Assembly (NCBI RefSeq): GCF_988243305.1
Contig: NZ_OZ547136.1
Strand: one strand, 5' to 3'
Length of the DNA: 64,000 bases
This document shows positions 2,774 to 64,000 of the stretch, piece after piece (position 1 is the stretch's first letter; the number at the start of each line of letters is the position of its first letter). Below the pieces are notes generated by a model that ran no database searches, was not told where the DNA came from, and saw nothing but the letters and a program-made list of their open reading frames with translations. The translations under genes and the position numbers were made by a program.

Positions 2774-2776
2774 TGA

Positions 2777-22308: not shown

Positions 22309-22590
22309 ATGCAACAAGAAGCATTAGGAATGGTTGAAACGAAAGGTCTGGTTTCTGCAATTGAAGCTGCAGATACCATGGTGAAATCTGCCAACGTGAC
22401 CCTAGTGGGTTATGAAAAAATCGGCTCCGGCTTGGTGACTGTGATGGTTCGCGGCGACGTTGGCGCAGTGAAAGCCGCGACAGATGCGGGCTCCGCTGCT
22501 GCGAGTAAAGTGGGAGAACTGGTCTCCGTACATGTTATTCCACGCCCACACATTGAGGTGGAAAAAATTCTACCGAAGGCTATCGGTTAA
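22309..22590 (+). CDS. BMC-H hexameric shell protein (PduA/EutM-like)
   Basis: Start at ATG 22309 preceded by [25 protein letters not shown]... canonical BMC domain. Confidence 0.85.
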
Positions 22591-22611
22591 TAACAATAAA
22601 GGATACTGATC

Positions 22612-23397: not shown

Positions 23398-23457
23398 GCA
23401 TCTGATGACGATGCACGCGGCGCGGTCGGCAGATGAAGAGTAGTAAGGAATTTAAAG

Positions 23458-30603: not shown

Positions 30604-32406
30604 GTGCGCCGTGACTGGCGCTGTTCTTCAACTGTGGTGGCAGAAGAACGACTAAGAGGTGAAAGTCCTCCACACACCCGGTGAGGGGAAGTGTTAGCGG
30701 AAGGCAAGGGTGTTCATCGCGAGGTGAAATCTGAAGGAAGCTGGATGCAAAATGCTGGCCTGACGAACAGGAAGCGGTTAAGTCGGCGCAGCAGGGTAAG
30801 GTGGCACAAATCACCAAAGCCCGATACTCACACGGAACGCTGTGACGTAAAGCCGACAGGCATAAGCAGGAAAGTCGCGTGAATTACCCCGGGAGATCTG
30901 TCGCCCTGCCAGTGTGCTACCGGCGCCGTGAGGCGCCGGGATGGGGCGGCAGAAGTCAGCCGACGCCGTAGTAGTGCTGCAAAACCGGCAGCATGAAGGG
31001 CCGAACATGATTAACTGTGATTAGGACATCCGAACCCGATGATGATTAATGAAGCACAAGCGCAGGCAACTGCGACCAGCGGCAGAGGAGACGGACAGTA
31101 TCCGTCAGGGCTGCATGATGGCGCTGAAATCAGCACGGCGGCGGGTGGGCAAACGAAAGCGGAAGTGCCGCTGACGATGGAAGCGGTGATAACGAGAGAA
31201 AACCTGATGCTGGCTTATCAGCGCGTGGTGGAAAACAAAGGCACGGCGGGGGTGGATAACCTCAGCGTGGCGGAGTTGAAACCGTGGCTGAAGAAGAACT
31301 GGCGCAGCGTCAGGCAGGCATTGATTGACGGAAACTACCAGCCGCGGGCAATACGCCGGATGGATATCCCGAAGCCGCATGGCGGCGTGAGAACCTCAGG
31401 CATCCCGACGGTGGTGGACAGGCTTATCCAGCAGGCGGTGCAACAGGCACAGCGTTACATACGGGGTGGCAAACGGTGGGTGGTGGATATGGATCTGGAG
31501 AAGTTCTTCGACCGTGTGGATCACAGACTCCTGATGACGCGTCTGGCCAGAACGATAAAGGACAGGCGGGTGCTGTGACTGATACGCCGCTACCTGAAAG
31601 CGGAAATGGTTAAAGACGGGCAAAGGGAGAAACGGCAGGCGGGCATGCTGCAGGGCGGCCCACTGTCGCCGTTACTGTCGAACATCCTGCTGGATGAACT
31701 GGATAAAGAACTGGAGCGTCGTGGACACAGCTTCTGCCGCTACGCAGACGACTGCAACATCTACGTAAGCAGCCGGAAAGCGGGCGACCATCTGCTGAAG
31801 AACATCAGGGCGTTCGTGGAGAACAAACTGAAGGTGAATGAGAAGAAGAGCGCGGTGGCGCGCCCGTGGGATCGGAAGTTCCTCGGGTACAGTGTGACAT
31901 GGCACAAACAGGCGAAGCTGAAGATAGCCCTGACGAGCGTGAACAGGCTGAAGGAGAAAGTCCACAGTCTGACGACGGGAAACCGGAGCAAATCAGTGAA
32001 AGCGACAATCAATGCTCTGACACCAGTGCTGTGTGGATGGATAAGCTACTTCAGGCTGACGGAAGTCAGAGGAGTGCTGGAGGAGCTGGATGGCTGGATC
32101 AAACGGAAACTGCGTTGCTTGTTGTAGCGGCAGTGGAAGAGACCGCTAACCCGGGCAAAGAACCTGCAAAGAGCAGGACTGAGTAAGGACAGGGCAATGA
32201 TCTCTGCGTACAACAACCACGGGCCATGGTGGAACTCAGGGTCAAGCCATATGAATCAGGCGATAAAGAATACATGGTTCAGGAGGCAGGGTCTGATATC
32301 ACTGCTGGAACAGTAGAGGCAGTTCCAGAGTTAACATGAACCGCCGTATGCGGAACCGCACGTACGGTGGTGTGAGAGGACGGCGGGAGTGATCCCGCCT
32401 CCTACT
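30604..32406 (+). mobile_element. Group II intron (bacterial class C-like, inserted just downstream of a terminator hairpin), degenerate
   Basis: 5' end GTGCG at 30604; domain V-like hairpin at ~32341-32372; internal RT/maturase ORF; 3' boundary approximate. Confidence 0.7.
31039..32316 (+). pseudogene. Group II intron reverse transcriptase/maturase with two in-frame stop codons and an internal deletion
   Basis: RT motifs (LEKFFDRVDH, QGGPLSPLLSNILLD, YADD); in-frame TGA at 31576-31578 and TAG at 32125-32127 with homology continuing downstream (GPWWNSGSSHMN); ~30 aa missing after LIQQAV. Confidence 0.75.
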
Positions 32407-36937: not shown

Positions 36938-37237
36938 TTAACAGATAAAGTAAAAAACCATCTGCATAGCGGGCGGCTTTGACACGGCCCCCTGAAAGGG
37001 GGCTTAAACACTACCCTTTCAGGCCCAGTTGTATTTGTCTTTCTTCTTCCTCTTTTGCTACCTTGTTCGAAAAGGGACGCTCGTCCTCGCCCACTGTTCT
37101 GTATGCATACCTGCTCCCACTGCAAATTATATTGCTGGGCTATGTTAACAAGCCTATATGCTATTAAAAACTCATGAGCAACATATTGATAATACCATTC
37201 TTATATATCCACGCTTAAGTAAATAACTCTTACATAA

Positions 37238-37582
37238 CTAACTATTCCATCTCACTTCTTCCTTAGCGAGTTTTCGGTATGCAATAGGAGCTATACCAAA
37301 GCGGCGAGTAAATGCCCTTGTAAATGTCTGCTGAAAATCAAACTGATATTTAAAAGTGATAGTCGTGACCGATTCAGTAGTAGAACGTAGTTCTTCTGCT
37401 GCATTTATTAATATACCTACCAATAGAAATACCAATGATATGTTTAAACAATTTCTGTAAATACCATTTTGAATATCCAGCTTTTTTGCCTCAATATTTA
37501 TTGAGAGTTCTACCTCAAGATTTTCATCAATTCATTTAGCAAGCTCATTGATATCAGCGCTGTTTTTTATAGTAGCGTTCAT
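37238..37582 (-). pseudogene. MarA/SoxS-family AraC-type regulator with in-frame premature TGA codon
   Basis: Translation MNATIKNSADINELAK-stop-IDENLEV...QQTFTRAFTRRFGIAPIAYR aligns with SoxS/MarA; stop sits where homologs have Trp; start overlaps 3' end of TetR-family gene. Confidence 0.5.
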
Positions 37583-38225
37583 TTTTATCGATGCCTGTGA
37601 AGGTTGATTGGGTCAACTCCAGTACTATGCAACCCTCTCTGAAAAGGGATTTATTATCAGGTTGCAGAATGCAACTTCGCACCACCCCCGTAAACAAAGA
37701 AAAAAGCAGGAACGCCAGAGCCTCACTACGAATTTCCGAACATATTTCTCTATATAACTTACCTTTTTCGAAAATATAACATAGTAATTTCACAAAATTA
37801 TTGACATCCACCATTTTTTGTAAGAAATTTATTCTTATATCATCCGGACATTCTTCACAAAAAAACACAATATAAATTACATTCCGTAAGTGTACATTAT
37901 ATTGTAATTTAATCAGGCTACGTGATAAGCAACGATACATCGCTTTAACCGGTTCAGAAACTCTCCCATTTTTGATGGCTGTAAGCTCATCAAATAATGA
38001 TAGTGGTACCCGCTCGATGACTTGTCGCAGAAGATCTTTTTTTTCGTTGAAATACCAGTATATGGCCCCCCGAGTACAACCTGCGCGCACCGCAATCATC
38101 TCCAGTGTCGTCTTCGAAAAGCCCGTCTCACAAAAGCAGAACTCTGCCGCATCCAGGATTTGTTTGCGGGTTTCTTCCGCTGCAAATTTTGTGTGCCGCA
38201 CCACTGTTGAAATCTCCATTGACAT
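37554..38225 (-). CDS. TetR-family transcriptional regulator (AcrR/EnvR-like)
   Basis: 223-aa ORF with N-terminal TetR HTH (TRKQILDAAEFCFCETGFSKTTLEMIAVRAGCTRGAIYWYF). Confidence 0.8.
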   Translation of the reverse strand: MSMEISTVVRHTKFAAEETRKQILDAAEFCFCETGFSKTTLEMIAVRAGCTRGAIYWYFNEKKDLLRQVIERVPLSLFDELTAIKNGRVSEPVKAMYRCLSRSLIKLQYNVHLRNVIYIVFFCEECPDDIRINFLQKMVDVNNFVKLLCYIFEKGKLYREICSEIRSEALAFLLFSLFTGVVRSCILQPDNKSLFREGCIVLELTQSTFTGIDKNERYYKKQR

Positions 38226-38324
38226 CTTATTTCAGGAAATATCTCTGGGGCATTTAGTACCAACCCAACAGCCATTTACTCAGGCGCAGTATGTTGTTTA
38301 CTGCACCTGAATATTTACTCATGC

Positions 38325-39481
38325 TTATGATTGCTCAGCTTCAGTCTTATCCGATGATTTCTTATTTCTGCGGCTGAAGAACCCGGCAATTAACATATAG
38401 AAGAGAGGAATATAAAAGATTGCCAGTATCGTAGCAGTGATCATCCCTCCAACCACACCAGTACCGATGGCATGTTTACTTCCGGAACTTGCTCCAGTCG
38501 AGACAGCCAGTGGGATAACCCCCATTACAAATGCCAGCGAAGTCATAATTATCGGTCTTAACCTCACTCTCGCCGCTTCAACAGCAGCCTCTTTAATGCT
38601 TAGTCCTTCTTTCTCATGCAATTCACGAGCAAACTCCACGATAAGTATGGCATTTTTCGCAGACAGCCCTATTGTTGTTAATAAACCGACCTGGAAAAAG
38701 ACATCGTTACCAAGGCCGCGCAACAAAGTAGCACAGACAGCCCCCAGGACACCAAGCGGAACAACCAGCATGACCGAGAAAGGAATGCTCCAGCTTTCAT
38801 ACAGTGCAGCCAGACACAGAAAGACGATCAACAGTGAAAGTGCATATAGTGCAGGAGCCTGAGAACCTGAAAGTCGTTCCTCAAAAGACAAACCTGTCCA
38901 GGAAATATGGAAACCTTCGGGAAGTCTTGCCGCAATATCCTCAATTGCTTTCATTGCATCCCCGGAACTGTATCCTGGTGCCGGTTCCCCCAGGATTTCG
39001 ACAGCAGAGATACCATTATATTGCTCCAGTTTTGGTGAGCCATAAATCCATTTGCCTGTTGCAAAAGAGGCAAAGGAAACCATGTCGCCATCACTGTTAC
39101 GGACATACCATTTATCAAAATCCTGCGGTGATATACGTGAGCCGGGTTCGCCCTAAATATAGACTTTTTTCACCCGTCCACGATCGTTAAAATCATTTAC
39201 ATACATCGAACCCCAGGCTGCTGGCATTATGTTGTCGACGTCGCTCATGCTCAGTTTAAGCGCCTGAACTTTCTCGTCATCAATCAGAATCTGGAACTGA
39301 GGCTCATCGTTCATGCCGTTAGGACGAACCATGTTTAACGCTGGACTTTTCGCCGCTTCAGCAAGAAGCTGATTTCGGGCCTGGATCATTTTTTCATGGC
39401 CAGCTCCGCTACGATCCTCGAGGAACAGGTCAAACCCTGTAGCATTCCCCAGTTCTGATACGGCAGGGGGCGTTTTAAAAC
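38325..39481 (-). pseudogene. RND efflux transporter (AcrB/AcrF-like) 3' remnant, frameshifted and truncated by IS2
   Basis: 252-aa ORF matches AcrB C-terminal TM bundle; adjacent 78-aa ORF (39153-39389) matches an internal AcrB segment in another frame; 5' end replaced by IS2 at 39482. Confidence 0.75.
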
Positions 39482-40439: not shown

Positions 40440-41045
40440 TCAGAACGGTCCTGCAGATCCGGGATAGCCGGGATTACCGGCGAGGCAACGGGCTTCCGGA
40501 TCGCACACACCACGACGATCGCGGGCGAAATCACTGAACGCCCATATCAACTCTTTGAGGATGTTTTCACAGTCCGGTGAACGACTGTCCAGCACCACAT
40601 CCCGGGTGATCTGCTTCTGATACTGCTTTGCTTCACCCGGTGACGCGAAGCCCAGTACGTTGCTCCAGGCATCCAGAATCAGCCGGTCCAGTTCAGGGCC
40701 GTCGAAATACTCCTGTCTGACACACAGCACCACGTGGTATTCCGGCTTTTCAGGATGACGGGTCAGGAGCCAGCAGAGATCTCGTCCAGGTGTTGCATTC
40801 ATCAGCGCACTGACGGTTTCGATAAAGTCCATACCGAACCAGATCTTTCTGCTGCTGAAGGTACGGTCATATTCACATGGCAGACGAAGCAGGATCCGTC
40901 GTATCCGGGAGCCGGACTGCTCACGCAGCGCACGCTCAAGGACACCGATGATTTTGTTCTGATAAGACGGCCAGAAGGGTGCCAGGCTATAGTCGAAATA
41001 AGGGATAGCATTCATAAGATATGCTCCGTTATGCGCAGCCCACAA
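40440..41045 (-). CDS. YfjJ/YagK-family (inovirus Gp2-like) prophage protein, paralog 1
   Basis: 201-aa ORF with family motif EYHVVLCV; conserved leader motif upstream. Confidence 0.55.
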   Translation of the reverse strand: MWAAHNGAYLMNAIPYFDYSLAPFWPSYQNKIIGVLERALREQSGSRIRRILLRLPCEYDRTFSSRKIWFGMDFIETVSALMNATPGRDLCWLLTRHPEKPEYHVVLCVRQEYFDGPELDRLILDAWSNVLGFASPGEAKQYQKQITRDVVLDSRSPDCENILKELIWAFSDFARDRRGVCDPEARCLAGNPGYPGSAGPF

Positions 41046-41272
41046 TGCGTCCTGCCCGTGAATGAGCTGACGTGTTATAGCTTGCGGATGGGGTTGATGG
41101 AATAAGTGAAGAACCGAAGCAGAACGGGAAGATCAGGTCACCGACAAGGGACAGAACACCGGATGTGGTTAAGAGTGAATGATCTCCGTTGACTTCAGTT
41201 CACATCATTAAGCAAGGTGGTAAGGTTTTACCGACGGAATGTTTCCAGGACAGGAAGCTCAGGATTTAAGCT

Positions 41273-41839
41273 TCAGAAGTGAGGGTTACGAGGACGCCCT
41301 GCAGCAGGACGTTCAGGAACTTCATTGCAGCCGTAGGCACACAGCCCGTCTTTTTGCTCTTCTTTTGCCAGATAATGCAGGGCACCGCGAATATTATCGA
41401 TGCTTTCAGGATCGTTGTGGCGCACAGGAATGTTGATGTTGTATGTATAATGCGGCTGATATGTACAGCGGTGTGCCGAACCGCTGTTATGTGTAATAGA
41501 CCGCCAGCATTCCGTAATCCGCTCCGCAAAGGGATATATTTTTTTAACCCTCTGACGATCGATCCACAAAACCGCATGCGCATGAAAACCATGATCAGCC
41601 GTCCATTCAATCACCCAGAAGAAACCAACGATATTTTCAAATTGTTCCACCTGCTCCAGCAGCATACGCAACTGCAATTCAAGCCAGCGATGATCAGGTT
41701 GTAAGAAATCGGGCGTATCTTTCCTGTAGAAGAAATCCATCCGTAAGGCCCGCAGGCAGGAATAGCGTGCCATCATTTGATTGATGTGATTGTCAAGTAA
41801 AGCGGTAAAAAACCAGTTTGGTGTGTAAGATTTAGGCAT
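41273..41839 (-). CDS. YfjJ/YagK-family prophage protein, paralog 2
   Basis: 188-aa ORF with HAHAVLWI motif. Confidence 0.55.
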   Translation of the reverse strand: MPKSYTPNWFFTALLDNHINQMMARYSCLRALRMDFFYRKDTPDFLQPDHRWLELQLRMLLEQVEQFENIVGFFWVIEWTADHGFHAHAVLWIDRQRVKKIYPFAERITECWRSITHNSGSAHRCTYQPHYTYNINIPVRHNDPESIDNIRGALHYLAKEEQKDGLCAYGCNEVPERPAAGRPRNPHF

Positions 41840-42670
41840 GTTGATGACTCCTGAAAGTTAATGATGTTTTAAGCTCTGTGAACGAATTAATGCTTTCGCT
41901 CATAACGGTAATAACTTACAGATGGTATTTATCAGGCATGCTGTAGCAGAATGGATACGACGGGTTATTAACGATACGCAGCATTATGCAGAAAGAAATG
42001 GATTATCTGATGGTATTAGCTAAAGAGATGAGATAAACGAGGAGTAAAGAAAATACAGACTCAATAAAACATCACGAAATACTGTAAAATACGAGCTAAA
42101 ACCCCACTACCTGGAGATTAAGAAACATATTGCGACCAATCACATCATAAACTACAAACTTGCTCTCAGTGAGTCTGCAAAAACGTGTACAAGGCCAACA
42201 CATATCTGTAACCTGATAAAATCATACACTCTCATTTAATCTGTTAAAAACAACTCACTTCAAAACATGAGCGTTAACGGGTACACGGTACCAGAATAAA
42301 ATATACCATGGATGGATAATTTTCATTTTGTTTAACATACAAGATAATCAGAAACGAACAAATATAATCAGGAATTCACTCTGTTAATTTCATTGTTTAT
42401 CCTGCGCTGTTAAACATGACGAAATCATGGATACCTTATCAAAGAGTAAACATCCAGTTAATCAGTGATGACAGAAGTATTGATATTTACCAGAATAGTT
42501 AAAACACTTCAGGTCAACAACAATCATCGTTAAGTCAATACAGTTCATTATGGATAATGACTAAAATCAATTGCTGTTTCAGTGAAGACTGATAACAGGT
42601 AGATATTAGCAACAACGTAGTAAAATAACTTATCTGAGTATCGTATGAATTACAGTAGTTATGATTGAAT

Positions 42671-42721
42671 GAAGGAGAAGGTGGAGAAGGTGGAGAAGGT
42701 GGAGAAGGTGGAGAAGGTGGA
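42671..42721. repeat. Short tandem repeat, 9-bp unit GAAGGTGGA x5 plus partial copy
   Basis: Read directly from sequence in AT-rich ORF-free region; explains spurious Pro/Ser-repeat ORF on minus strand. Confidence 0.9.
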
Positions 42722-43157
42722 TACCATGATAATGGTGGCAATGAAGATTAGACAAGGAAGGGAGTAAGTATAATCGGGTGAGGGTCAGAGTAATGGAATG
42801 AGTAAAGATAGAGAGTAAGTAAAAACAGAGTGAATAAAGACAAAGTGAATATAATTATAGTAATAAACCTAAATTAAAAATACTTGCGTATAATGGAAAG
42901 AAATAAGAATTAAGAATAGCGTATGAGTCGTAGTCATGACCTGGCTACAAAAAGTCATTCCATCTGGCTGTCATTCAGACACACTCCCCAAACATTCGAC
43001 TACAAAGTACTAACAGAAAATTAACTGATGTATTATTCTTCTGCCCTGAATGAACATCCGGAAGTATAATCTCCCCTAGCTTCACGTTCACCGGGAAAAA
43101 CGAAGCTATTTACTTTGATGATCGCTGACGAAAAACCGAACAGGCAGTTGCATAATC

Positions 43158-44252
43158 ATGGACAACAGAGAAAAAGAGATACTCAGGATCCTGCGTCACA
43201 ACCCACTGATCCAGCAGAATGAAATTGCTGAGATTTTACAAATCAGTCGGTCGCGTGTTGCTGCACACATTATGGATCTGATGCGCAAAGGTGCGATTAA
43301 AGGGAAAGGCTACATCCTGACAGAACAGGAATACTGTGTTGTTCTTGGGGCGATTAACATGGATATCCGTGGGGTGGCGGATATCCATTATCCACAGAAA
43401 TCCTCCAGTCCGGGCAGTATTTACTGCTCTGCCGGAGGTGTCGGACGCAACATCGCCCATAATCTCGCCCTTCTGGGCCGCAATGTGCATCTGATATCTG
43501 CTGTAGGCAATGATTTTTATGGCGAAACATTACTGGAGCAGACCCGCCTGGCCGGCGTTAATGTCACCAATTGTATTCGACTGAACGGACAAAATACTTC
43601 AACTTATGTCTCCATCGCCGACCTACAGGCAGAAACAGTGATGGCGATTAATGATACCCATATTCTGCAACAACTGACGCCGCAGTTGCTGGACGCCTCA
43701 CGTATGTTAATCCGTCACGCTGGCGTGGTGCTGGCTGACTGTAATCTGACACCTGCCGCCCTTGAATGGATCTTTACGGTCGCTGACGGCATTCCCGTTT
43801 TTATTGATACAGTGTCGAAATTTAAGGCTGTTAATGTAAAAAACTGGCTTCCGCATATCCATACCCTGAAACCCACACAAAAAGAACTGGAGATATTATG
43901 GGGTTCCCCTGTCAACAATGAGACCGATCTACTCACCGCAGTGAACGCACTACATCAGCAGGGTGTGCAACAGATTTTTGTCTGGATGGGAGATGAATCC
44001 GTTTTCTGTAGCCAAAGAGAGGGAGAACAATTTCTGCTCACACCGCCCGTTCATGCCGTTGTGGACAGCTTTGGTGCAGATGATGGCTTTATGGCAGGTC
44101 TGCTTTACAGTTTTCTGGAAGGAAGTAGTTTCCAGGAAAGTGCTCACTTTGCGATGGCATGTGCAGCACTGTCACGTGCCAGCACCAGCATCAATAACCC
44201 AACACTTTCCGTTAATAACGCGCAATATCTGTTAAAAACATCCCGGGGGTAA
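43158..44252 (+). CDS. YeiI-like protein: N-terminal winged-helix HTH fused to PfkB-family sugar/nucleoside kinase
   Basis: 364-aa ORF; HTH (LIQQNEIAEILQISRSRVAAHIMDL) plus PfkB motifs (GGVGRNIAH, DSFGADDGFMAG). Confidence 0.8.
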   Translation: MDNREKEILRILRHNPLIQQNEIAEILQISRSRVAAHIMDLMRKGAIKGKGYILTEQEYCVVLGAINMDIRGVADIHYPQKSSSPGSIYCSAGGVGRNIAHNLALLGRNVHLISAVGNDFYGETLLEQTRLAGVNVTNCIRLNGQNTSTYVSIADLQAETVMAINDTHILQQLTPQLLDASRMLIRHAGVVLADCNLTPAALEWIFTVADGIPVFIDTVSKFKAVNVKNWLPHIHTLKPTQKELEILWGSPVNNETDLLTAVNALHQQGVQQIFVWMGDESVFCSQREGEQFLLTPPVHAVVDSFGADDGFMAGLLYSFLEGSSFQESAHFAMACAALSRASTSINNPTLSVNNAQYLLKTSRG

Positions 44253-44270
44253 CACCCGGGATTGTATTTT

Positions 44271-45521
44271 TTATGCCAGCCCAATGAAAAAACCAGCGAT
44301 AGTCGCACTCATCAGGTTTGACAGGGTGGCCGCCGCCAGTGCACGCATGCCCAGTTGTGCAATTTCAGGTGCACGCTGAGGTGATATGGCTGAAAAGGCA
44401 CCCACCACCACACCAATGGAGCCAAAGTTGGCAAAACCACACAGTGCAAAAGAAATAATTGCGGTGGTTTTCACATCAAGCGTACTGCCTGGCTGTAAAT
44501 AGGGTGAAAGATTGAGATAAGCAACAAATTCGTTAATTGCCAGCTTCTGACCAATCAGACTTCCTGCCAGTGAAGCATCCGCCCAGTCAACGCCCATGAT
44601 CCACGCAAGGGGAGCCAAAATCCAGCCGAAAATGCCCTCAAGGGTAATATTACCATAACCAAACCAGCCTCCGATACCACCGATTATACCGTTAATCAGA
44701 GCAATAATAGCAACAAAGGTCATCACTACCGTTGCAACTCCGACAGCGATTTTCAACCCGGTCATCGCCCCGCTGGCCACTGCTTCAATAACACTTTTGG
44801 GAGGAGTATCAGTGAAAGAAAGATTTTCAAAAGTGACTTTTGATTCTTCTGTGGCCGGACTCAGAATACGGGCAAAAAGGATCCCCCCCGGGATCGCCAT
44901 CAACGACGCCGCCAGCAAATAGTCAATCGGAACCCCCATCCCGGCATAGCCGATCATCATTGAACCGGCAATCGAAGCCATCCCACTGCAGATGACAGTA
45001 AATAATTCATTACGATTCAGACGATTAATAAACGGTTTTACAATTGCCGGGATCTCGTTTTGCCCCAGGAAAATTGTCGTTACTGCCACAAATGACTCAA
45101 CTTTACTTATGTTCAGAGCTTTCTGAAAAATCCCCCCCAGAATACGGATAAGCCCCCCCATCACTCTGATGTAGTACAGCAGACTGATAAGCGCTGTAAC
45201 AAAAATGATGGCAGGAAGTACACGGAAGGCGAAGATAAAACCCGCCCCATCGAACAGTACGTCCATTTTGTCCCCTACCAGAGAGCCAAAAATAAAGGCA
45301 CTGCCCGCATCACTGTAAGACATAATTTTATGTACGCCCAGTGCAGCCTGTTCAACCAGCCATTTCCCCGGGGGGAAATAGAGCATGATCCCACCAATCG
45401 CGATTTGAAGAACCAGTGCAGCTCCTGTGGTACGTAAACTGATACGTTTTTTATTCACTGATAGTAGAAATGCAATTATCAGCAATACTGCCATTCCCAC
45501 TATACTTCTCATGATGTCCAT
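44271..45521 (-). CDS. psuT: NupC-family nucleoside transporter (pseudouridine transporter PsuT-like)
   Basis: 416-aa polytopic membrane ORF of NupC/CNT family; downstream of psuG/psuK on same strand. Confidence 0.75.
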   Translation of the reverse strand: MDIMRSIVGMAVLLIIAFLLSVNKKRISLRTTGAALVLQIAIGGIMLYFPPGKWLVEQAALGVHKIMSYSDAGSAFIFGSLVGDKMDVLFDGAGFIFAFRVLPAIIFVTALISLLYYIRVMGGLIRILGGIFQKALNISKVESFVAVTTIFLGQNEIPAIVKPFINRLNRNELFTVICSGMASIAGSMMIGYAGMGVPIDYLLAASLMAIPGGILFARILSPATEESKVTFENLSFTDTPPKSVIEAVASGAMTGLKIAVGVATVVMTFVAIIALINGIIGGIGGWFGYGNITLEGIFGWILAPLAWIMGVDWADASLAGSLIGQKLAINEFVAYLNLSPYLQPGSTLDVKTTAIISFALCGFANFGSIGVVVGAFSAISPQRAPEIAQLGMRALAAATLSNLMSATIAGFFIGLA

Positions 45522-45604
45522 AATGCTCTCCCCTTATACCTGAACCAGACACGGAATCTGGTTCAGGTAATTTCGGGCGACCTCACACTGCCCGTTCATT
45601 TATA

Positions 45605-46540
45605 TCAGACAATTTGTTGATATTCTTTTGCTATCTCACAGGCCAGAACTGCGTTGTTGAATACCAGCTGAATATTTGATTTCAGACTGTCACCACCGGT
45701 TAATTCTGCCACCCGTGCCAGCAGGAACGGTGTGCTTTCTTTACCGGTAATGCCCTGCACTTCCGCTTCTTTTACGGCCTGGTCAATTGCTGCATTAATT
45801 TTCTCTTCCGCCATGGCGTAAGCTTCCGGAATCGGATTGGCAACAACCAGACCACCGTTCAGGCCGGTTTGCCATTTCACTGCCATCGCGCGGGCAATCT
45901 CTTTTGCACTGTCCAGACGTATACTGACCTCAAACGGACTGGTGCGGCAAAAAAATGCCGGCAATGATCTTGTCTGATAGCCAATTAAAGGTACACCAAA
46001 TGTTTCTAAATATTCCGTGGTTAACCCTAAATCGAGAATGGATTTCGCGCCTGCACAAACCACGGTGACATTAGTATGTGCCAGTTCCTGTAGGTCGGCT
46101 GAAATATCAAAAGTGTGTTCTGCACCGCGATGAACGCCGCCAATTCCTCCTGTGGCAAAAACTTTAATTCCGGCAAGAGCAGCAATAATCATGGTTGAAG
46201 CTACCGTTGTTGCACCATGTTTTCCTTCAGCAATAACGAAAGGTAAATCCCGGCGACTGACTTTGGTAACGTTATGTCCTTCGCGACCCAGTAATTCAAT
46301 CTCATCTTTACTTAACCCGACTTTCATTACACCGCCAATAACGGCAATGGTGGCTGGTACTGCTCCGTGTTTACGTATAGTTTCTTCGACTTCAATAGCC
46401 GTCTGAGCATTCTGAGGAAAAGGCATACCATGTGAGATAATTGTTGACTCGAGAGCAACAACAGGTTTTTTACTGTTAATGGCATCCTGTACTTCCGGTG
46501 AAATTTGCAGTAATTCAGAAGAAATGGTTATTTCAGACAT
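45605..46540 (-). CDS. psuG: Pseudouridine-5'-phosphate glycosidase
   Basis: 311-aa ORF of the PsuG/YeiN family; overlaps psuK stop by 8 nt. Confidence 0.8.
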   Translation of the reverse strand: MSEITISSELLQISPEVQDAINSKKPVVALESTIISHGMPFPQNAQTAIEVEETIRKHGAVPATIAVIGGVMKVGLSKDEIELLGREGHNVTKVSRRDLPFVIAEGKHGATTVASTMIIAALAGIKVFATGGIGGVHRGAEHTFDISADLQELAHTNVTVVCAGAKSILDLGLTTEYLETFGVPLIGYQTRSLPAFFCRTSPFEVSIRLDSAKEIARAMAVKWQTGLNGGLVVANPIPEAYAMAEEKINAAIDQAVKEAEVQGITGKESTPFLLARVAELTGGDSLKSNIQLVFNNAVLACEIAKEYQQIV

Positions 46541-47468
46541 TCTGTTTCTCCACTAAGCTTTTAACGTTAGCAACAGATAATTCAGGATTATTGGTATACT
46601 CACTGGCCAGCGCCATTGATGAACACCCCTGTGCAAATCGAATGGAATCAATAAATGGCATATTATCAACCCAGCAGGAAGCCAGCCCTGCCATCATGGC
46701 ATCCCCTGCCCCCGTAACGTTCACCACCTGTGTTTTTACTGGCGGCGACCAGCCGCTGGCTCCGTACAGTTCGCTGTAATAAACTCCATCCCCCCCCATG
46801 CTGAGCACAAGGCGATTCAGACCATGTGTATGGAACCATACCGCCACTTTTTCAGCATCATTCCGATCTGAAAGCGAAATACCACTGAGTGTTTCTGCTT
46901 CAAGCCGGTTGGGCTTGAGAGTATGAATTTGTGCTAAATGTTCACGAATTTTGACACACTTCCATGCAGATACCGGGTCAACAAATACCGGAACCTTACC
47001 TGCATTATTCAGTAGCCAGACAAGTGTTGACTCACTGATATTACAGTCTGCAACAATAACCTTCGCTCCCTGAATAAAATCAATATGCTGTGATAAAAAC
47101 TCAGCTGAAATATGTTCACTAATCGTCATGTCATTTATTGCCACCAACATTTCACCGGTTTTATCGAGAAGTGATAAATAACTTGAGGTATTTTCTCCAT
47201 TAACAATCAGACATTTATCAACATTAACGCCGGACTGAGTCGTTTGTGCTAATAATGATTGCCCGTAGAAATCATCTCCCACAGCTGACATCAGCCATGA
47301 GTTTTTACCCAGCAGAGCAAGATTATGTGCAATATTACGCCCCACACCTCCGGGCGTGAATTTAATCTTCCCCGGGTTAGAATCAGCATAATTTAAGGAG
47401 GCATACGAATATCCGGCTATATCTATATTGGCAGAGCCAATTGTGATGATGTATTCCTTATCACACAT
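46533..47468 (-). CDS. psuK: Pseudouridine kinase (PfkB family)
   Basis: Start at MCDKEYIITIGSANIDIAGY with RBS CAGGAGA; high similarity to E. coli PsuK as recalled. Confidence 0.8.
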   Translation of the reverse strand: MCDKEYIITIGSANIDIAGYSYASLNYADSNPGKIKFTPGGVGRNIAHNLALLGKNSWLMSAVGDDFYGQSLLAQTTQSGVNVDKCLIVNGENTSSYLSLLDKTGEMLVAINDMTISEHISAEFLSQHIDFIQGAKVIVADCNISESTLVWLLNNAGKVPVFVDPVSAWKCVKIREHLAQIHTLKPNRLEAETLSGISLSDRNDAEKVAVWFHTHGLNRLVLSMGGDGVYYSELYGASGWSPPVKTQVVNVTGAGDAMMAGLASCWVDNMPFIDSIRFAQGCSSMALASEYTNNPELSVANVKSLVEKQNV

Positions 47469-48003
47469 GGCACATCTCCTGACATTTAAAAACACAAAAA
47501 TAATAAATCTGTATTTCTATTCGACCACGCAGATAGAGTTGAACATATATTCAAAATCAAACATGTGTTCACTTTATGCCTGTTTTTAGAAATGTAAATA
47601 CCAGTCCAGAATCAAAAAGTGAAAAATGAAAACAGGATCACAATTTTTATCGTTAATCCATGTTGTCCTTATCCGGTTTTATGGCGTTGCCCTGTTTCAT
47701 CAGGTTATTTGCATGAACGGAATAAATACCGGAGATGACAGGAAACACCATAAGATATTCAGGATGTTACGATGAATTTCATGAGGATCGCTAAAAATGA
47801 GCCTGTTTAATAATTTTATGCAAACACCTTATACCAGGGCTTCCCTTCGGAGATATCAATGACCCCGACAGCGCTCTCACTGCCCTGGTTGCTGGTTTCC
47901 GATATCCTCTTAACTTGCAGGCTCATCCCGCATTTCACTCATGGTGAATAAGGCACATAATGGTCTGGAGTCAATTCTGGCTTACGATTTGTAAATATAA
48001 TAA

Positions 48004-48456
48004 TTAAAGCGTTCTCAAAAGTCTGGCTGGATTACCGGCATACACGCCTTTTACCAGCACGGGCTTTGTAACCACACTACCAGCCCCAATCACTGCTCCA
48101 CTGCAAATTTCTGTTGTTAAAATAGTCGCTCCGCTACCCACTGTTACAGTGTTACCTAATACGATACGTATCCAGCTTTCTGCAGAGGCATCGGGACCAC
48201 CACACTTAAAAAGATCATTAGCAAAAGTTACGCCATGACCGATGAAACAGCCATCACCTAAAATGACGTTCTCACAGATGAAACTGTGGGACTGAATTCG
48301 GCTCCGCTTGCCAATGATGCATCCCTTCTGTATTTCCACAAAGGGACCGATAAAAACATCATCCCCCAGTTCACATTCATAGAGGTTTACTGGCATGACG
48401 ACTTTCACATTTTCACCAAATTTCACATCACGAATGCCGCTGTTAATAACGTGCAT
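48004..48456 (-). CDS. Hexapeptide-repeat (left-handed beta-helix) acetyltransferase
   Basis: 150-aa ORF with repeated [LIV]G-x-x-x-x hexads (IGHGVTFANDL, VGSGATILT, IGAGSVVTK). Confidence 0.75.
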   Translation of the reverse strand: MHVINSGIRDVKFGENVKVVMPVNLYECELGDDVFIGPFVEIQKGCIIGKRSRIQSHSFICENVILGDGCFIGHGVTFANDLFKCGGPDASAESWIRIVLGNTVTVGSGATILTTEICSGAVIGAGSVVTKPVLVKGVYAGNPARLLRTL

Positions 48457-48976
48457 ATCCGTTGTATCCTCCCTCAGGATGATTCTTATCAGAACATTTC
48501 ACCTGTCAGAATATTCCCGGTAATGCGATACAAGATCCTGTCTCACCGGGTACCACGTGTTATTGCCCGTATCCTTTTGCCCGTTACGAGTGTACAACCG
48601 GTTTTGTATTTTGCAATCCAGGCCTGTTACACCAGAGCATCCTCCCACTGCCCCCTCACTGCTCAGTCCGGGATTCAAAGTCATCTTCCAGCACTAAACC
48701 TCATACCAGTTCTGAACCTTCCCTCGCCAGCAGTCAGGATCGTACGGTTCACCACTATCCTCTTCCGTGAATGGCAGTAAGTGAGCAGCACCAAAATAAA
48801 TCGGTACTTCCAATGACAGACAGTGAAAGTGTAAGGGGAAATATGAACATGAGAATGGAAGCAGATAAAAATACCGTTTCATGACTTCAGGGCGATTATC
48901 AGAAAACGAGCTAAGGGCGTCAGCCAACGTCCTGACCGTGGTATACGCTCAGGCACCGGATGCTGTTTTACCGGGT

Positions 48977-49708
48977 TCACCTGCCATCCAGTAGACGCCC
49001 CGGCCCACGACTGCAACCATAATTACGTTGCCCGGAACCGTCATGCTGCTTCGTCTCATATTTCACGAGATAACTGGCTCTGTTCCGGGCTTTCTGCAGC
49101 GCTTCCACATCACCACGCTTGATCCAGAGCACAGCGGCTTCACCTGGCTTTTTGTCTGAAGCCTTCCTGGTATCAGAACATCCACCCGACAAAGGCGTGT
49201 CATCGGAAGAAGGGCGAGCATCAGACGATGTCGGTTTACGGGAAGGCGTCCACCTGGAAAAATGGACCAGGCCATCGCCTTGCCAGGGCTCAAGATGCAG
49301 GGCGCTGCACCATGCCTCCTGGATCATCGTCGCCAGCGAAGACGGTTCGCTGAAATCCCCGAGCGAGCACCAGGTATCTTTGTTGAGCAGTAATATCACG
49401 TGATAATGTTTCCTGCCATACATCTTGCCGAACTCCCGGCACCAGAAATAACGCAGGCTGGTTGCATGCACACGCTGATTGGCCCATCTTTTTTTCCGCT
49501 GGTAAGCCTGAATTTTGGCTTTCAGGGATGCGAAAAAACGGGAAATCACCGCTGAATCCGGATCGGGATCCATGATGGTGACAGGCATATACTCAGGGAA
49601 ACGTAAATCCACCCGGATTAACGAGACGGCACGGTGTTGCACCAGGGCACTGTTGAGAATACTTTCAAAACGGGATAACCAGTAATCATTGTGTATTGGT
49701 TGATTCAT
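48977..49708 (-). CDS. YfjJ/YagK-family prophage protein, paralog 3 (full length)
   Basis: 243-aa ORF with HYHVILLL motif; conserved leader immediately upstream. Confidence 0.6.
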   Translation of the reverse strand: MNQPIHNDYWLSRFESILNSALVQHRAVSLIRVDLRFPEYMPVTIMDPDPDSAVISRFFASLKAKIQAYQRKKRWANQRVHATSLRYFWCREFGKMYGRKHYHVILLLNKDTWCSLGDFSEPSSLATMIQEAWCSALHLEPWQGDGLVHFSRWTPSRKPTSSDARPSSDDTPLSGGCSDTRKASDKKPGEAAVLWIKRGDVEALQKARNRASYLVKYETKQHDGSGQRNYGCSRGPGRLLDGR

Positions 49709-50377
49709 GATGAGAGATCTCCGTTGATTTGGATTGACTTCACATCATTAATCACTGCGGTAAAACTTTACGGCATCCCGCCATTGAGCAACGCCAATGG
49801 CTCCTGATTAAAACAGAATGAATCGTCCCGTAACGAAAAGATAATCCTGCACACGACAGCAAAACGTAAAACAACAGCATGAATGAGCTAAATGTCTAAA
49901 GAAAAACTGCCTTTTCACATTATTTTTCAGCGAGTAATCATACCAGCATCCCTAACATACGAAATCGCATCGTGATCGATCGCTGATTCGCCGAACAACT
50001 GATCGAATACACCGGAATCTGCACTAACATCCTGATGGGTAACGGAAGACTAAAAAACCAGTGTTCTATTGATTGCACGGAATGCCTGTGCGCTGGCCTG
50101 ACCAGTAAGCACAATTCTACGAGTAGTAAGATATCTACTCCAAAACCATGCGCAGTAGCCACCATATGTTGCCAGGGTGAAAAATAAGCTCAGAGCTATA
50201 GGGGAGTAATTCCCGTTAATGTCATCGCCGTACCTCAATCAGCTCACAAACTGGCTGAAACGTTAAGCTGAGGCCTTTATTCTTCAGATGTATTTTCCGG
50301 TTTACCTGTAAATTATCTTCTGATATTTATCACATTAGTAATTGTGCTGATTATCTACATACTTCAAGGTCTGAAAT

Positions 50378-59275: not shown

Positions 59276-59597
59276 ATGAAAACATTACCCGACACGCATG
59301 TACGGGAGGTATCGTGCTGCCCGTCTCCCGTCACCATCTGGCAGACACTGCTCACCCGGTTACTGGACCAGCATTACAGCCTTACGCTGAATGACACACC
59401 GTTCGCCGATGAACGTGTGATTGAGCAGCATATTGAGGCAGGTATTGCACTGTGTGATGCGGTGAACTTTCTCGTGGAAAAATACGCACTGGTACGAACC
59501 GACCAGCCGGGATTCAGCGCAGGAACTTCGTCGCAGTTAATCAACAGCATTGATATTCTCCGGGCACGCCGGGCAACAGGTCTGATGACCCGCAGCA
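59276..59597 (+). pseudogene. CbtA/YeeV/YpjF-family toxin gene, 3'-truncated by IS10 insertion
   Basis: MKTLP...[29 protein letters not shown] matches CbtA family; reading frame runs into IS10 outside end at 59598. Confidence 0.75.
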
Positions 59598-60926
59598 CTG
59601 ATGAATCCCCTAATGATTTTTATCAAAATCATTAAGTTAAGGTAGATACACATCTTGTCATATGATCAAATGGTTTCGCCAAAAATCAATAATCAGACAA
59701 CAAGATGTGCGAACTCGATATTTTACACGACTCTCTTTACCAATTCTGCCCCGAATTACACTTAAAACGACTCAACAGCTTAACGTTGGCTTGCCACGCA
59801 TTACTTGACTGTAAAACTCTCACTCTTACCGAACTTGGCCGTAACCTGCCAACCAAAGCGAGAACAAAACATAACATCAAACGAATCGACCGATTGTTAG
59901 GTAATCGTCACCTCCACAAAGAGCGACTCGCTGTATACCGTTGGCATGCTAGCTTTATCTGTTCGGGCAATACGATGCCCATTGTACTTGTTGACTGGTC
60001 TGATATTCGTGAGCAAAAACGACTTATGGTATTGCGAGCTTCAGTCGCACTACACGGTCGTTCTGTTACTCTTTATGAGAAAGCGTTCCCGCTTTCAGAG
60101 CAATGTTCAAAGAAAGCTCATGACCAATTTCTAGCCGACCTTGCGAGCATTCTACCGAGTAACACCACACCGCTCATTGTCAGTGATGCTGGCTTTAAAG
60201 TGCCATGGTATAAATCCGTTGAGAAGCTGGGTTGGTACTGGTTAAGTCGAGTAAGAGGAAAAGTACAATATGCAGACCTAGGAGCGGAAAACTGGAAACC
60301 TATCAGCAACTTACATGATATGTCATCTAGTCACTCAAAGACTTTAGGCTATAAGAGGCTGACTAAAAGCAATCCAATCTCATGCCAAATTCTATTGTAT
60401 AAATCTCGCTCTAAAGGCCGAAAAAATCAGCGCTCGACACGGACTCATTGTCACCACCCGTCACCTAAAATCTACTCAGCGTCGGCAAAGGAGCCATGGG
60501 TTCTAGCAACTAACTTACCTGTTGAAATTCGAACACCCAAACAACTTGTTAATATCTATTCGAAGCGAATGCAGATTGAAGAAACCTTCCGAGACTTGAA
60601 AAGTCCTGCCTACGGACTAGGCCTACGCCATAGCCGAACGAGCAGCTCAGAGCGTTTTGATATCATGCTGCTAATCGCCCTGATGCTTCAACTAACATGT
60701 TGGCTTGCGGGCGTTCATGCTCAGAAACAAGGTTGGGACAAGCACTTCCAGGCTAACACAGTCAGAAATCGAAACGTACTCTCAACAGTTCGCTTAGGCA
60801 TGGAAGTTTTGCGGCATTCTGGCTACACAATAACAAGGGAAGACTTACTCGTGGCTGCAACCCTACTAGCTCAAAATTTATTCACACATGGTTACGCTTT
60901 GGGGAAATTATGAGGGGATCTCCTTA
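59598..60926 (+). mobile_element. IS10 (Tn10 flanking copy), outside end at 59598
   Basis: Outside-end sequence CTGATGAATCCCCTAATGATTTTTATCAAAATCATTAAG; 1329-bp span; inner terminus reads GGGGATCTCC rather than the inside end as I recall it. Confidence 0.85.
59705..60913 (+). CDS. IS10 transposase
   Basis: 402-aa ORF matching IS10 transposase (MCELDILHDSLYQFCPELHLKRLNSL...). Confidence 0.9.
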   Translation: MCELDILHDSLYQFCPELHLKRLNSLTLACHALLDCKTLTLTELGRNLPTKARTKHNIKRIDRLLGNRHLHKERLAVYRWHASFICSGNTMPIVLVDWSDIREQKRLMVLRASVALHGRSVTLYEKAFPLSEQCSKKAHDQFLADLASILPSNTTPLIVSDAGFKVPWYKSVEKLGWYWLSRVRGKVQYADLGAENWKPISNLHDMSSSHSKTLGYKRLTKSNPISCQILLYKSRSKGRKNQRSTRTHCHHPSPKIYSASAKEPWVLATNLPVEIRTPKQLVNIYSKRMQIEETFRDLKSPAYGLGLRHSRTSSSERFDIMLLIALMLQLTCWLAGVHAQKQGWDKHFQANTVRNRNVLSTVRLGMEVLRHSGYTITREDLLVAATLLAQNLFTHGYALGKL

Positions 60927-61926
<1,000 letters not shown>

Positions 61927-61941
61927 CTAATTTTTGTTGAC

Positions 61942-61990
61942 ACTCTATCATTGATAGAGTTATTTTACCACTCCCTATCAGTGATAGAGA
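61942..61990. promoter_or_regulatory. tet operators in divergent tetR-tetA promoter region
   Basis: Palindromes ACTCTATCATTGATAGAGT and TCCCTATCAGTGATAGAGA between tetR and tetA starts. Confidence 0.9.
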
Positions 61991-61998
61991 AAAGTGAA

Positions 61999-63204
61999 AT
62001 GAATAGTTCGACAAAGATCGCATTGGTAATTACGTTACTCGATGCCATGGGGATTGGCCTTATCATGCCAGTCTTGCCAACGTTATTACGTGAATTTATT
62101 GCTTCGGAAGATATCGCTAACCACTTTGGCGTATTGCTTGCACTTTATGCGTTAATGCAGGTTATCTTTGCTCCTTGGCTTGGAAAAATGTCTGACCGAT
62201 TTGGTCGGCGCCCAGTGCTGTTGTTGTCATTAATAGGCGCATCGCTGGATTACTTATTGCTGGCTTTTTCAAGTGCGCTTTGGATGCTGTATTTAGGCCG
62301 TTTGCTTTCAGGGATCACAGGAGCTACTGGGGCTGTCGCGGCATCGGTCATTGCCGATACCACCTCAGCTTCTCAACGCGTGAAGTGGTTCGGTTGGTTA
62401 GGGGCAAGTTTTGGGCTTGGTTTAATAGCGGGGCCTATTATTGGTGGTTTTGCAGGAGAGATTTCACCGCATAGTCCCTTTTTTATCGCTGCGTTGCTAA
62501 ATATTGTCGCTTTCCTTGTGGTTATGTTTTGGTTCCGTGAAACCAAAAATACACGTGATAATACAGATACCGAAGTAGGGGTTGAGACGCAATCGAATTC
62601 GGTATACATCACTTTATTTAAAACGATGCCCATTTTGTTGATTATTTATTTTTCAGCGCAATTGATAGGCCAAATTCCCGCAACGGTGTGGGTGCTATTT
62701 ACCGAAAATCGTTTTGGATGGAATAGCATGATGGTTGGCTTTTCATTAGCGGGTCTTGGTCTTTTACACTCAGTATTCCAAGCCTTTGTGGCAGGAAGAA
62801 TAGCCACTAAATGGGGCGAAAAAACGGCAGTACTGCTCGGATTTATTGCAGATAGTAGTGCATTTGCCTTTTTAGCGTTTATATCTGAAGGTTGGTTAGT
62901 TTTCCCTGTTTTAATTTTATTGGCTGGTGGTGGGATCGCTTTACCTGCATTACAGGGAGTGATGTCTATCCAAACAAAGAGTCATCAGCAAGGTGCTTTA
63001 CAGGGATTATTGGTGAGCCTTACCAATGCAACCGGTGTTATTGGCCCATTACTGTTTGCTGTTATTTATAATCATTCACTACCAATTTGGGATGGCTGGA
63101 TTTGGATTATTGGTTTAGCGTTTTACTGTATTATTATCCTGCTATCGATGACCTTCATGTTAACCCCTCAAGCTCAGGGGAGTAAACAGGAGACAAGTGC
63201 TTAG
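61999..63204 (+). CDS. tetA: Tetracycline efflux MFS transporter TetA class B
   Basis: 401-aa ORF starting MNSSTKIALVITLLDAMGIGLIMPVLPTLL; matches TetA(B). Confidence 0.95.
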   Translation: MNSSTKIALVITLLDAMGIGLIMPVLPTLLREFIASEDIANHFGVLLALYALMQVIFAPWLGKMSDRFGRRPVLLLSLIGASLDYLLLAFSSALWMLYLGRLLSGITGATGAVAASVIADTTSASQRVKWFGWLGASFGLGLIAGPIIGGFAGEISPHSPFFIAALLNIVAFLVVMFWFRETKNTRDNTDTEVGVETQSNSVYITLFKTMPILLIIYFSAQLIGQIPATVWVLFTENRFGWNSMMVGFSLAGLGLLHSVFQAFVAGRIATKWGEKTAVLLGFIADSSAFAFLAFISEGWLVFPVLILLAGGGIALPALQGVMSIQTKSHQQGALQGLLVSLTNATGVIGPLLFAVIYNHSLPIWDGWIWIIGLAFYCIIILLSMTFMLTPQAQGSKQETSA

Positions 63205-63316
63205 TTATTTCGTCACCAAATGATGTTATTCCGCGAAATATAATGACCCTCTTGATAACCCAAGAGGGCATTTTTTACGATAAAGAAGATTTAGCTTCAA
63301 ATAAAACCTATCTATT

Positions 63317-63910
63317 TTATTTATCTTTCAAGCTCAATAAAAAGCCGCGGTAAATAGCAATAAATTGGCCTTTTTTATCGGCAAGCTCTTTTAGGTTTTT
63401 CGCATGTATTGCGATATGCATAAACCAGCCATTGAGTAAGTTTTTAAGCACATCATCATCATAAGCTTTAAGTTGGTTCTCTTGGATCAATTTGCTGACA
63501 ATGGCGTTTACCTTACCAGTAATGTATTCAAGGCTAATTTTTTCAAGTTCATTCCAACCAATGATAGGCATCACTTCTTGGATAGGGATAAGGTTTTTAT
63601 TATTATCAATAATATAATCAAGATAATGTTCAAATATACTTTCTAAGGCAGACCAACCATTTGTTAAATCAGTTTTTGTTGTGATGTAGGCATCAATCAT
63701 AATTAATTGCTGCTTATAACAGGCACTGAGTAATTGTTTTTTATTTTTAAAGTGATGATAAAAGGCACCTTTGGTCACCAACGCTTTTCCCGAGATCTCA
63801 TCTATTGAAACAGCTTGATAGCCTTTTTCAACAAACAATATTCGTGCTGAGTTAACCAGTGATTGATAGGTACTCTTAAAATTTTCTTGTTGATGATTTT
63901 TATTTTCCAT
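63317..63910 (-). CDS. tetC: Tn10 TetC (TetR-family regulator)
   Basis: 197-aa ORF from MENKNHQQ; position and orientation downstream of tetA as in Tn10. Confidence 0.8.
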   Translation of the reverse strand: MENKNHQQENFKSTYQSLVNSARILFVEKGYQAVSIDEISGKALVTKGAFYHHFKNKKQLLSACYKQQLIMIDAYITTKTDLTNGWSALESIFEHYLDYIIDNNKNLIPIQEVMPIIGWNELEKISLEYITGKVNAIVSKLIQENQLKAYDDDVLKNLLNGWFMHIAIHAKNLKELADKKGQFIAIYRGFLLSLKDK

Positions 63911-64000
63911 GATAGATTTAAAATAACATACCGTCAGTATGTTTATGGTATCATGATGATGTGGTCGTGACAATCTTAAGAACATTTAGGTTATTTTATG

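Follow-up and report, generated by a model that had tools for sequence, protein, structure and literature searches.

A second, Citrobacter-like pseudouridine gene cluster carried by a tRNA-Phe genomic island of Escherichia coli

Introduction

Pseudouridine leaves the mammalian body unmetabolised, and uracil and ribose 5-phosphate can be recovered from it by bacteria. The psu enzymes and the core operon that encodes them are well characterised, and tRNA-Phe islands and CP4-like modules are likewise well known. Here we analyse a 64,000-nucleotide stretch of contig NZ_OZ547136.1 (RefSeq assembly GCF_988243305.1), hereafter the window, in which a preliminary description made from the sequence alone had noted a pseudouridine gene cluster (yeiI-like, psuT, psuG and psuK) and a hexapeptide acetyltransferase gene between YfjJ-family genes. 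We conclude that the cluster is very probably a horizontally acquired four-gene cassette for the uptake and catabolism of pseudouridine, of Citrobacter amalonaticus/sedlakii-like origin, which travels as cargo in a CP4-like module of a genomic island situated between pheU and cadC.

Results

Genes of the locus

All five open reading frames (ORFs) of the preliminary description were recovered, and the genes on both flanks match the Pfam family YagK_YfjJ_C (table 1). The four psu ORFs are intact. The yeiI-like gene, on one strand, converges on psuK-psuG-psuT, which would form an operon with its own promoter region, and a terminator-like hairpin lies between the two convergent units. The psuK and psuG genes overlap by 8 bp. 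For psuK, the longest mechanical ORF begins at a GTG codon at 47495; the ATG at 47468 is favoured by the RefSeq annotation and by the alignment of orthologues. The spacers also contain small ORFs, which appeared to be noise.

Table 1. Features of the psu cassette and its surroundings, with positions in the window (aa, amino acids).
Feature	Position	Strand	Evidence
Conserved 4.5-kb psu cassette: four genes and about 180 bp upstream of psuK	43123–47648		blastn homology limits
yeiI-like gene, 364 aa	43158–44252	+	NCBIfam NF007416, 732 bits (cutoff 561)
Terminator-like hairpin, bidirectional, between yeiI-like gene and psuT	44240–44262		consensus match only, scan of both strands
psuT-like gene, NupC-family nucleoside transporter, 416 aa	44271–45521	−	TIGR00804, 507 bits (cutoff 442)
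psuG, pseudouridine-5'-phosphate glycosidase, 311 aa	45605–46540	−	Pfam Indigoidine_A (PF04227), E = 2.6e-133
psuK, pseudouridine kinase, 311 aa	46533–47468	−	equivalog NF007355, 648.3 bits (cutoff 540)
Putative psuK promoter/regulatory region, travelling with the cassette	47469–47648	−	alignment of 16 enterobacterial psuK upstream regions
CRP-like site TGTGATCCTGTTTTCA	47642–47627	−	position conserved across aligned psuK upstream regions
−35/−10 pair TTTACA-16-TAAAGT	47598–47571	−	promoter scan and positional conservation
Near-palindromic 12-mer GAACACATGTTT	47570–47559	−	positional conservation, just downstream of −10
Near-palindromic 12-mer GAATATATGTTC	47552–47541	−	positional conservation
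7,592-bp segment missing from the otherwise collinear HH35 island	41259–48850		GGAAGC repeats at 41253–41258 and 48851–48856
YagK/YfjJ-family gene, 188 aa, island backbone	41273–41839	−	Pfam YagK_YfjJ_C, 22.8 bits (gathering cutoff 25.8); RefSeq YagK/YfjJ domain-containing
Hexapeptide-repeat (LbH) acyltransferase gene, 150 aa	48004–48456	−	Pfam Hexapep
Inovirus Gp2/YagK-YfjJ family gene, 243 aa, backbone	48977–49708	−	Pfam YagK_YfjJ_C, 123.7 bits, above gathering cutoff, E = 9e-36

The model match and hallmark residues mark the island PsuK as a pseudouridine kinase of the PfkB family, its predicted activity being an ATP-dependent phosphorylation that is specific for pseudouridine. Residue numbering and roles were taken from PUKI, in which Ser30, Asn143 and Lys170 recognise pseudouridine and Asp256 and Lys185 are catalytic (PMC9061257); the island PsuK keeps all five, together with Tyr97, Asn112, Met114 and Trp169. 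The corresponding residues for PsuG are Lys166, which forms the iminium intermediate, Glu31 and Asn289 (PMC7722734), and all three are conserved in the island protein, whose residues 1–310 align with the solved structure of E. coli PsuG/YeiN (PDB 4GIJ, E = 6.7e-180). The transporter is a PsuT-like member of the NupC family, with pseudouridine as its predicted substrate. The YeiI-like protein combines a winged helix-turn-helix (HTH) domain (HTH_24, residues 1–48) with a PfkB domain (residues 58–348). It retains the residues matching PUKI Ser30, Asn143, Lys170, Lys185 and Asp256, with an altered anion-hole motif, GADD in place of the GAGD of PsuK. Taken together, PsuT would import pseudouridine, PsuK would convert it to pseudouridine 5'-phosphate, and PsuG would cleave the C-glycosidic bond to release uracil and ribose 5-phosphate.

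A second psu copy beside the core locus

As the reference for island context we used E. coli WP4-S17-ESBL-08 (NZ_AP022049.1), which matches window positions 1–59597 at 99.9–99.98% identity (99.98% over 22000–59597). At 1.73 Mb this genome, with its near-identical island, keeps the core locus intact (fruBKA, psuK, psuG, psuT, yeiL, rihB, nupX, yeiI, nfo) in the same layout as K-12, where the site is at about 2.26 Mb. The preliminary description was right that the K-12 neighbourhood is missing around the cluster, as none of nfo, nupX, rihB, yeiL and fruA is found near it.

The distribution of the two types was analysed in 5426 complete E. coli genomes. When psuT-psuG-psuK was searched by blastn, the top hit of each record had at least 99% identity in 374 records, 95–99% in 11 and 60–80% (around 76%) in 5047. 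The island type (at least 95% identity) is thus the best match in 385 records, corresponding to approximately 7% of complete E. coli genomes; the other 93% are without an island copy. The 8 kb around the psu genes are 100% identical in many RefSeq genomes, and this 8-kb segment was found in 375 of the 5426. A megablast search with the K-12 allele, by which the island type goes undetected, found the core type at 80% query coverage or more in 5391 of the 5426 genomes, so that both loci must be present in no fewer than about 350 of the 385 carriers.

These figures bear on the possibility that the cluster is the sole psu locus, with mobile-element genes inserted beside it. In NZ_AP022049.1 an intact core locus occupies its usual site, the flanks of the cluster belong to the pheU-cadC island and include no fru or nfo genes, and the great majority of genomes have no island copy; we therefore consider a sole locus vanishingly improbable. 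A search for a second psu locus, proposed in the preliminary description, accordingly turned one up, and the island copy is neither the only locus nor part of a shared core neighbourhood.

Compared with the K-12 core locus, yeiI-nupX-rihB-yeiL-psuT(yeiM)-psuG(yeiN)-psuK(yeiC), the island copy has the same four gene families, the same psuK-psuG-psuT order and psuK/psuG overlap, a yeiI gene converging on the transporter gene, the same catalytic and specificity residues and the same psuK promoter architecture. It differs in lacking nupX, rihB and the CRP/FNR-type regulator gene yeiL, in lacking nfo and fruA as neighbours, and in its position in the pheU island. DNA identity between island and core psuTGK is approximately 76%, with synonymous sites saturated, while the proteins are 75% (YeiI), 90% (PsuT), 90% (PsuG) and 79% (PsuK) identical; the island PsuT is nearer to core PsuT than to NupX (84%).

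The core psuT-psuG-psuK genes are themselves unusually polymorphic within E. coli, with 80–90% identity to the K-12 allele in 1184 genomes (87% in NZ_OW967795.1), which hints at possible allelic replacement at the core site too.

Ancestry of the island copy

The preliminary description offered island cargo or a relocated paralogous copy as alternatives. Under the second, an intragenomic duplication or relocation would have produced a diverged paralogue of the yei/psu locus of E. coli itself, and it is true that the four families on the island are also those at the two ends of the core locus, with matching relative order and orientation. However, the sequences point elsewhere. A scan for PsuK with one genome per bacterial species gave the best matches in the Citrobacter amalonaticus group (86%), against 79–81% for the Escherichia core copies. 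The representatives of this group are the closest for the whole cassette (PsuK 86%, PsuG 93–94%, PsuT 94% and YeiI 82%), and DNA identity to the Citrobacter chromosomal loci is approximately 78–81%.

A neighbour-joining tree of the four concatenated proteins (numpy-based, 200 bootstraps) agrees with this. The window copy has as its partner the accessory copy of E. coli STO_Bone1B (100% bootstrap), and this pair groups with an accessory copy from Salmonella enterica (100%). The resulting mobile clade falls within the C. amalonaticus/sedlakii group (97% without the Salmonella copy, 100% with it) and apart from the Escherichia core clade, the island copy sitting on a long branch that it shares with the other accessory copies.

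Gene order provides further evidence. All four genes were mapped in 60 loci. In enterobacteria they usually form a compact block, psuK-psuG-psuT and then a convergent yeiI; Citrobacter, Klebsiella, Enterobacter, Buttiauxella, Kluyvera and E. albertii show this layout. In E. coli and a few others, yeiL-rihB-nupX is inserted in addition. The chromosomal loci of C. amalonaticus and C. sedlakii, the nearest species-representative sequences, have the identical compact four-gene layout, and the island copy, too, is of this ancestral type, not a trimmed E. coli locus. With some 76% DNA identity to core psuTGK, saturated synonymous sites, grouping with Citrobacter at 97–100% bootstrap and a layout that fits other genera, an origin by duplication within E. 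coli is very unlikely. Of the two alternatives in the preliminary description, island cargo in the form of a second copy is upheld, whereas the relocated paralogue gives way to a xenologue. The phylogeny and synteny comparisons that it had recommended place the island copy with the C. amalonaticus/sedlakii group, outside Escherichia, and in the surroundings of the pheU-cadC island as opposed to fru-psu-yeiL-rihB-nupX-yeiI-nfo.

As to the immediate donor, among 5.8 billion protein clusters island YeiI had no match above 85–88% outside E. coli; the top cluster matches were at 88% (probably the STO_Bone1B type) and 85% (Salmonella). The donor species may lie outside the sample, or the cassette may have been circulating on mobile elements for a long time.

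Limits of the cassette and its slot in the island

By blastn, homology to the window extends over 43123–47647 for E. coli STO_Bone1B, 43009–47648 for S. enterica and 43135–47648 for the Citrobacter chromosomes. Since these limits nearly coincide in three independent contexts, the cassette can be regarded as a discrete unit.

A larger segment is defined by strain HH35, which has a collinear pheU-cadC island, grp locus included, and an empty site with a single GGAAGC where the window has a 7.6-kb segment between two copies. The 6-bp repeat could reflect a target duplication or a microhomology deletion in HH35. It is the only repeat at the ends of the segment, where we found neither terminal inverted repeats nor insertion sequence (IS) elements. 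In EC7072022BGR, a related backbone consists of YfjJ, spacer, acyltransferase and Gp2 genes, with an H-NS fragment and an HTH pseudogene in place of window positions 42883–47999.

The genes on either side of the psu unit have a history of their own. The 188-aa YagK/YfjJ-family gene, which also matches Pfam REP_ORF2-G2P below the gathering cutoff, and the first 1.4 kb or so of the segment (to about 42685) are present at 85–90% identity in many genomes without psu genes. The Gp2-family gene on the other flank is 89% identical to the backbone copy of HH35. The acyltransferase, for which no NCBIfam family cutoff was reached, is found as a segment of approximately 96% identity in 133 genomes without adjoining psu sequence, and it stands next to psu in no other locus examined (the 60-locus survey, STO_Bone1B and Salmonella). 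Because both segments occur in psu-less genomes, the acyltransferase and YfjJ genes are assigned to the backbone and the psu genes to cargo in a variable slot. The acetyltransferase, which the preliminary description had listed with the cluster, is thus backbone cargo with no functional tie to the psu unit.

The AT-rich 1.3-kb spacer upstream of the yeiI-like gene (approximately 35% GC) contains a 9-bp tandem repeat (GGAGAAGGT) in about six copies at 42665–42736, and homology to the YfjJ modules of other islands breaks at this repeat.

The host island and the question of a phage role

In NZ_AP022049.1 the island spans approximately 66 kb, bordered on the left by dicD, a tRNA-Phe gene (pheU) and a tyrosine integrase gene, and on the right by an integrase fragment and cadC. 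The window has no tRNA gene because it begins inside the island. The content is a mosaic of a phosphoethanolamine transferase gene, a TerB-N/ATPase/helicase trio, IbrAB-like genes, remnants of a type VI secretion system and of IS elements, a complete grp glycyl-radical propanediol microcompartment locus, a TetR gene and a truncated RND pump, along with CP4-like backbone genes (AlpA, YfjJ, Gp2, a YeeP-like GTPase, DUF932, antirestriction, RadC, YeeU/CbtA and DUF4942). With a tRNA-adjacent integrase, a presence limited to certain strains and this mosaic content, the element is a tRNA-integrated composite genomic island. It has the same left-end tRNA-Phe/integrase arrangement and backbone gene set as CP4-6/CP4-57-type elements and tRNA-Phe (pheU/pheV) islands, to which it adds the grp microcompartment, the efflux-pump remnants and the psu cassette.

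The preliminary description had called the island prophage-like and had raised the possibility that its nucleoside-salvage genes affect modified-nucleoside metabolism during phage infection. A megablast search of window positions 41000–50000 against 50,697 phage records gave no match, no relative of PsuG was found in IMG/VR, PHROG matches were confined to families without an assigned function, and the annotation of the whole island includes no phage structural genes. We therefore rejected the prophage label. A PADLOC scan of the proteins detected only a weak winged-HTH similarity of YeiI to CasR (E = 4e-5) and nothing for the other nine proteins, and membership of an anti-phage defence system was likewise rejected for want of a meaningful match. 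The idea that the psu genes serve a phage-related or anti-phage role, for example by altering modified-nucleoside pools during infection, could draw on the antirestriction and toxin–antitoxin genes in the backbone of the island and on the TerB-N/ATPase/helicase trio further along it. The negative results of these searches speak against it, as does the fact that throughout the Enterobacteriaceae these four genes belong to ordinary chromosomal metabolism, and such a role is highly implausible.

Related cassettes on other mobile elements

The accessory copies of STO_Bone1B (NZ_CP054169.1) and S. enterica (GCA_010633625.1) belong to the same clade as the window cassette (100%), have nearly the same boundaries and reside in IS-rich accessory contexts. 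Their DNA identity to the window cassette is 93.5% and 84.9%, respectively, and in both cases IS110 and transposase remnants abut the cassette. In STO_Bone1B the flanks comprise an intact TetR-RND efflux operon and remnants of IS110, IS3 and IS66. In Salmonella, whose cassette is the closest one outside E. coli, RelB/ParE and IS elements lie on one side, while genes for a pyrimidine-nucleoside phosphorylase, an IF-2B-family (ribose-phosphate isomerase-like) protein and a PRiA4_ORF3 protein lie on the other, which suggests that the cassette there may be part of a larger mobile nucleoside-catabolism module. The one-genome-per-species scan turned up no core psuK in Salmonella. Together with the window copy they make up a distinct mobile psu-cassette clade common to E. 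coli and Salmonella. Targeted full-text searches found no paper describing an island-borne psu copy, and the GrpP/GrpQ paper makes no mention of the island or of pseudouridine. A 'psuG' hit in a review of restriction-modification was discarded, as it refers to the unrelated enzyme PsuGI.

The TetR gene and truncated RND permease gene at window positions 37070–39472 are 92% identical to part of the intact TetR-RND-adaptor operon beside the STO_Bone1B psu genes. Linkage between the efflux operon and the psu genes may predate their entry into this island.

Plasmids carry psu genes of a different kind. On the IncHI1A conjugative plasmid pLAO65 (NZ_OP242285.1, positions 19918–23898), yeiL-psuT-psuG-psuK is present as cargo between trhN and trhI, next to ISVsa5. 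This is a core-type allele, 76.6% identical to the island cassette, and it includes yeiL and lacks yeiI, so it looks like a separate capture by a mobile element. Six more large E. coli plasmids match core-type psuTGK (NZ_CP063342.1, NZ_CP063512.1, NZ_CP064017.1, NZ_CP033094.1, CP137936.1 and CP044299.1), pLAO65 being the only one inspected. A plasmid origin of the island allele was rejected, since a blastn search of the plasmid collection gave only core-type or distant psu genes.

Islands carry a complete psu cassette in some 7% of the complete genomes of E. coli and in certain Salmonella, and psu genes were captured independently by IncHI1A plasmids, which indicates that pseudouridine scavenging has been mobilised repeatedly. 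Strains with one psu locus and strains with two also offer a natural experiment. The cassette as such adds redundant xenologous genes for a pathway that is well characterised, and islands commonly carry cargo of this kind.

The psuK promoter region

Alignment of the 16 enterobacterial psuK upstream regions revealed a candidate regulatory architecture that travels with the cassette (table 1). The CRP-like site has the consensus TGTGA-N6-TCAxA, and its centre, as we count it, lies some 72 bp upstream of the inferred start. The two near-palindromic 12-mers share the consensus GAACACATGTTY, are spaced 18 bp apart and are found as a pair at the psuK promoter of both the window copy and the core locus.

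Activity, regulation and retention

The intact ORFs, the conserved catalytic residues, the promoter and a low ratio of non-synonymous to synonymous substitution rates (dN/dS, 0.02–0.14 between the two E. coli island variants) suggest that the cassette works. Because the core locus already provides the capacity, its effect would probably be extra dosage, or a differently regulated scavenging of pseudouridine.

The least certain step in this scheme is the part played by the YeiI-like protein, which is most likely a pseudouridine-binding regulator or else an accessory kinase. According to a statement in PMC12506659, which cites Preumont et al. 2008, a psuK mutant is unable to use pseudouridine as a carbon source, which speaks against YeiI being a redundant pseudouridine kinase. 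Given this phenotype, the HTH domain, the recognition triad, the catalytic Asp and the GADD motif, we favour a role as sensor or regulator as a working hypothesis. YeiI is consistently linked to the operon, and the island copies draw attention to this uncharacterised protein. A bolder and decidedly tentative extension is that the cassette is a self-contained module, in which the YeiI-like protein would act as a pseudouridine-responsive transcription factor that binds the paired 12-mers overlapping the psuK promoter, and in which carriage of a second cassette by E. coli of mostly human origin would result from selection to scavenge pseudouridine excreted by the host, for instance in urine. If the regulator part were true, it would explain why the four genes and the 180-bp promoter region travel together between the islands of E. 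coli and Salmonella.

Several observations weigh against a functional cassette of Citrobacter-like origin. On the side of ancestry, no sampled species representative is nearer than approximately 86% (PsuK), and neighbour-joining on four proteins is a simple method. As to function, the psuK gene of STO_Bone1B is annotated as frameshifted near its 3' end, and in the window the right half-site of the CRP-like element and the second 12-mer are degenerate relative to the consensus of the 16-region alignment, although the window copy nonetheless retains all of the promoter elements (CRP-like site, hexamers and both 12-mers). The low dN/dS may mostly reflect divergence before the transfer, and selection since acquisition cannot be measured because 374 of the 385 copies are at least 99% identical. 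The function of YeiI is unknown (PMC9061257). Finally, the cassette duplicates what the core locus already provides and could therefore be hitchhiking neutrally.

Several of these points would be expected of a non-functional or decaying passenger that is intact through recency and kept only by its linkage to the island. Redundancy, the STO_Bone1B frameshift and the degenerate half-site and 12-mer all fit such a passenger, as do the existence in HH35 of a collinear island without the segment and the loss, upstream of the island yeiI, of nfo, which in the core locus directly precedes yeiI on the same strand with a 2-bp gap. Against this, all four ORFs are intact with their catalytic and specificity residues conserved, the −35 and −10 hexamers and the first operator copy are retained, dN/dS is low, and related cassettes persist in three separate accessory contexts in two genera. 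A mere passenger is therefore unlikely, and we prefer the reading of a mobile cassette that would still be active in pseudouridine uptake and catabolism, with any fitness benefit probably lying in added or differently controlled scavenging.

Other features of the island and the window

A 64,877-bp circular 'plasmid' record, NZ_CP173464.1, from urine isolate 98228, comprises essentially the whole pheU island. It begins in the integrase 3' fragment, ends past the DUF4942 gene and has no annotated replication genes, and it could be an assembly artefact or else a circle that was excised when the two integrase 3' repeats recombined.

Within the cbtA toxin region the window ceases to follow the reference island, and its last 4.4 kb (59597–64000) consist of an inserted Tn10-type element with IS10/ISVsa5, tet(B), tetR(B), gltS and an ArsR-family gene. 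At the opposite end, at about 464–6288, genes for a protein with a TerB N-terminal domain, an ATP-binding protein and a DEAD/DEAH helicase adjoin an integrase remnant; this trio could be a defence-type module. Within the grp locus, fragments of a reverse transcriptase and a maturase lie between grpO and grpP (about 31039–32127) and may be the remnants of a group II intron.

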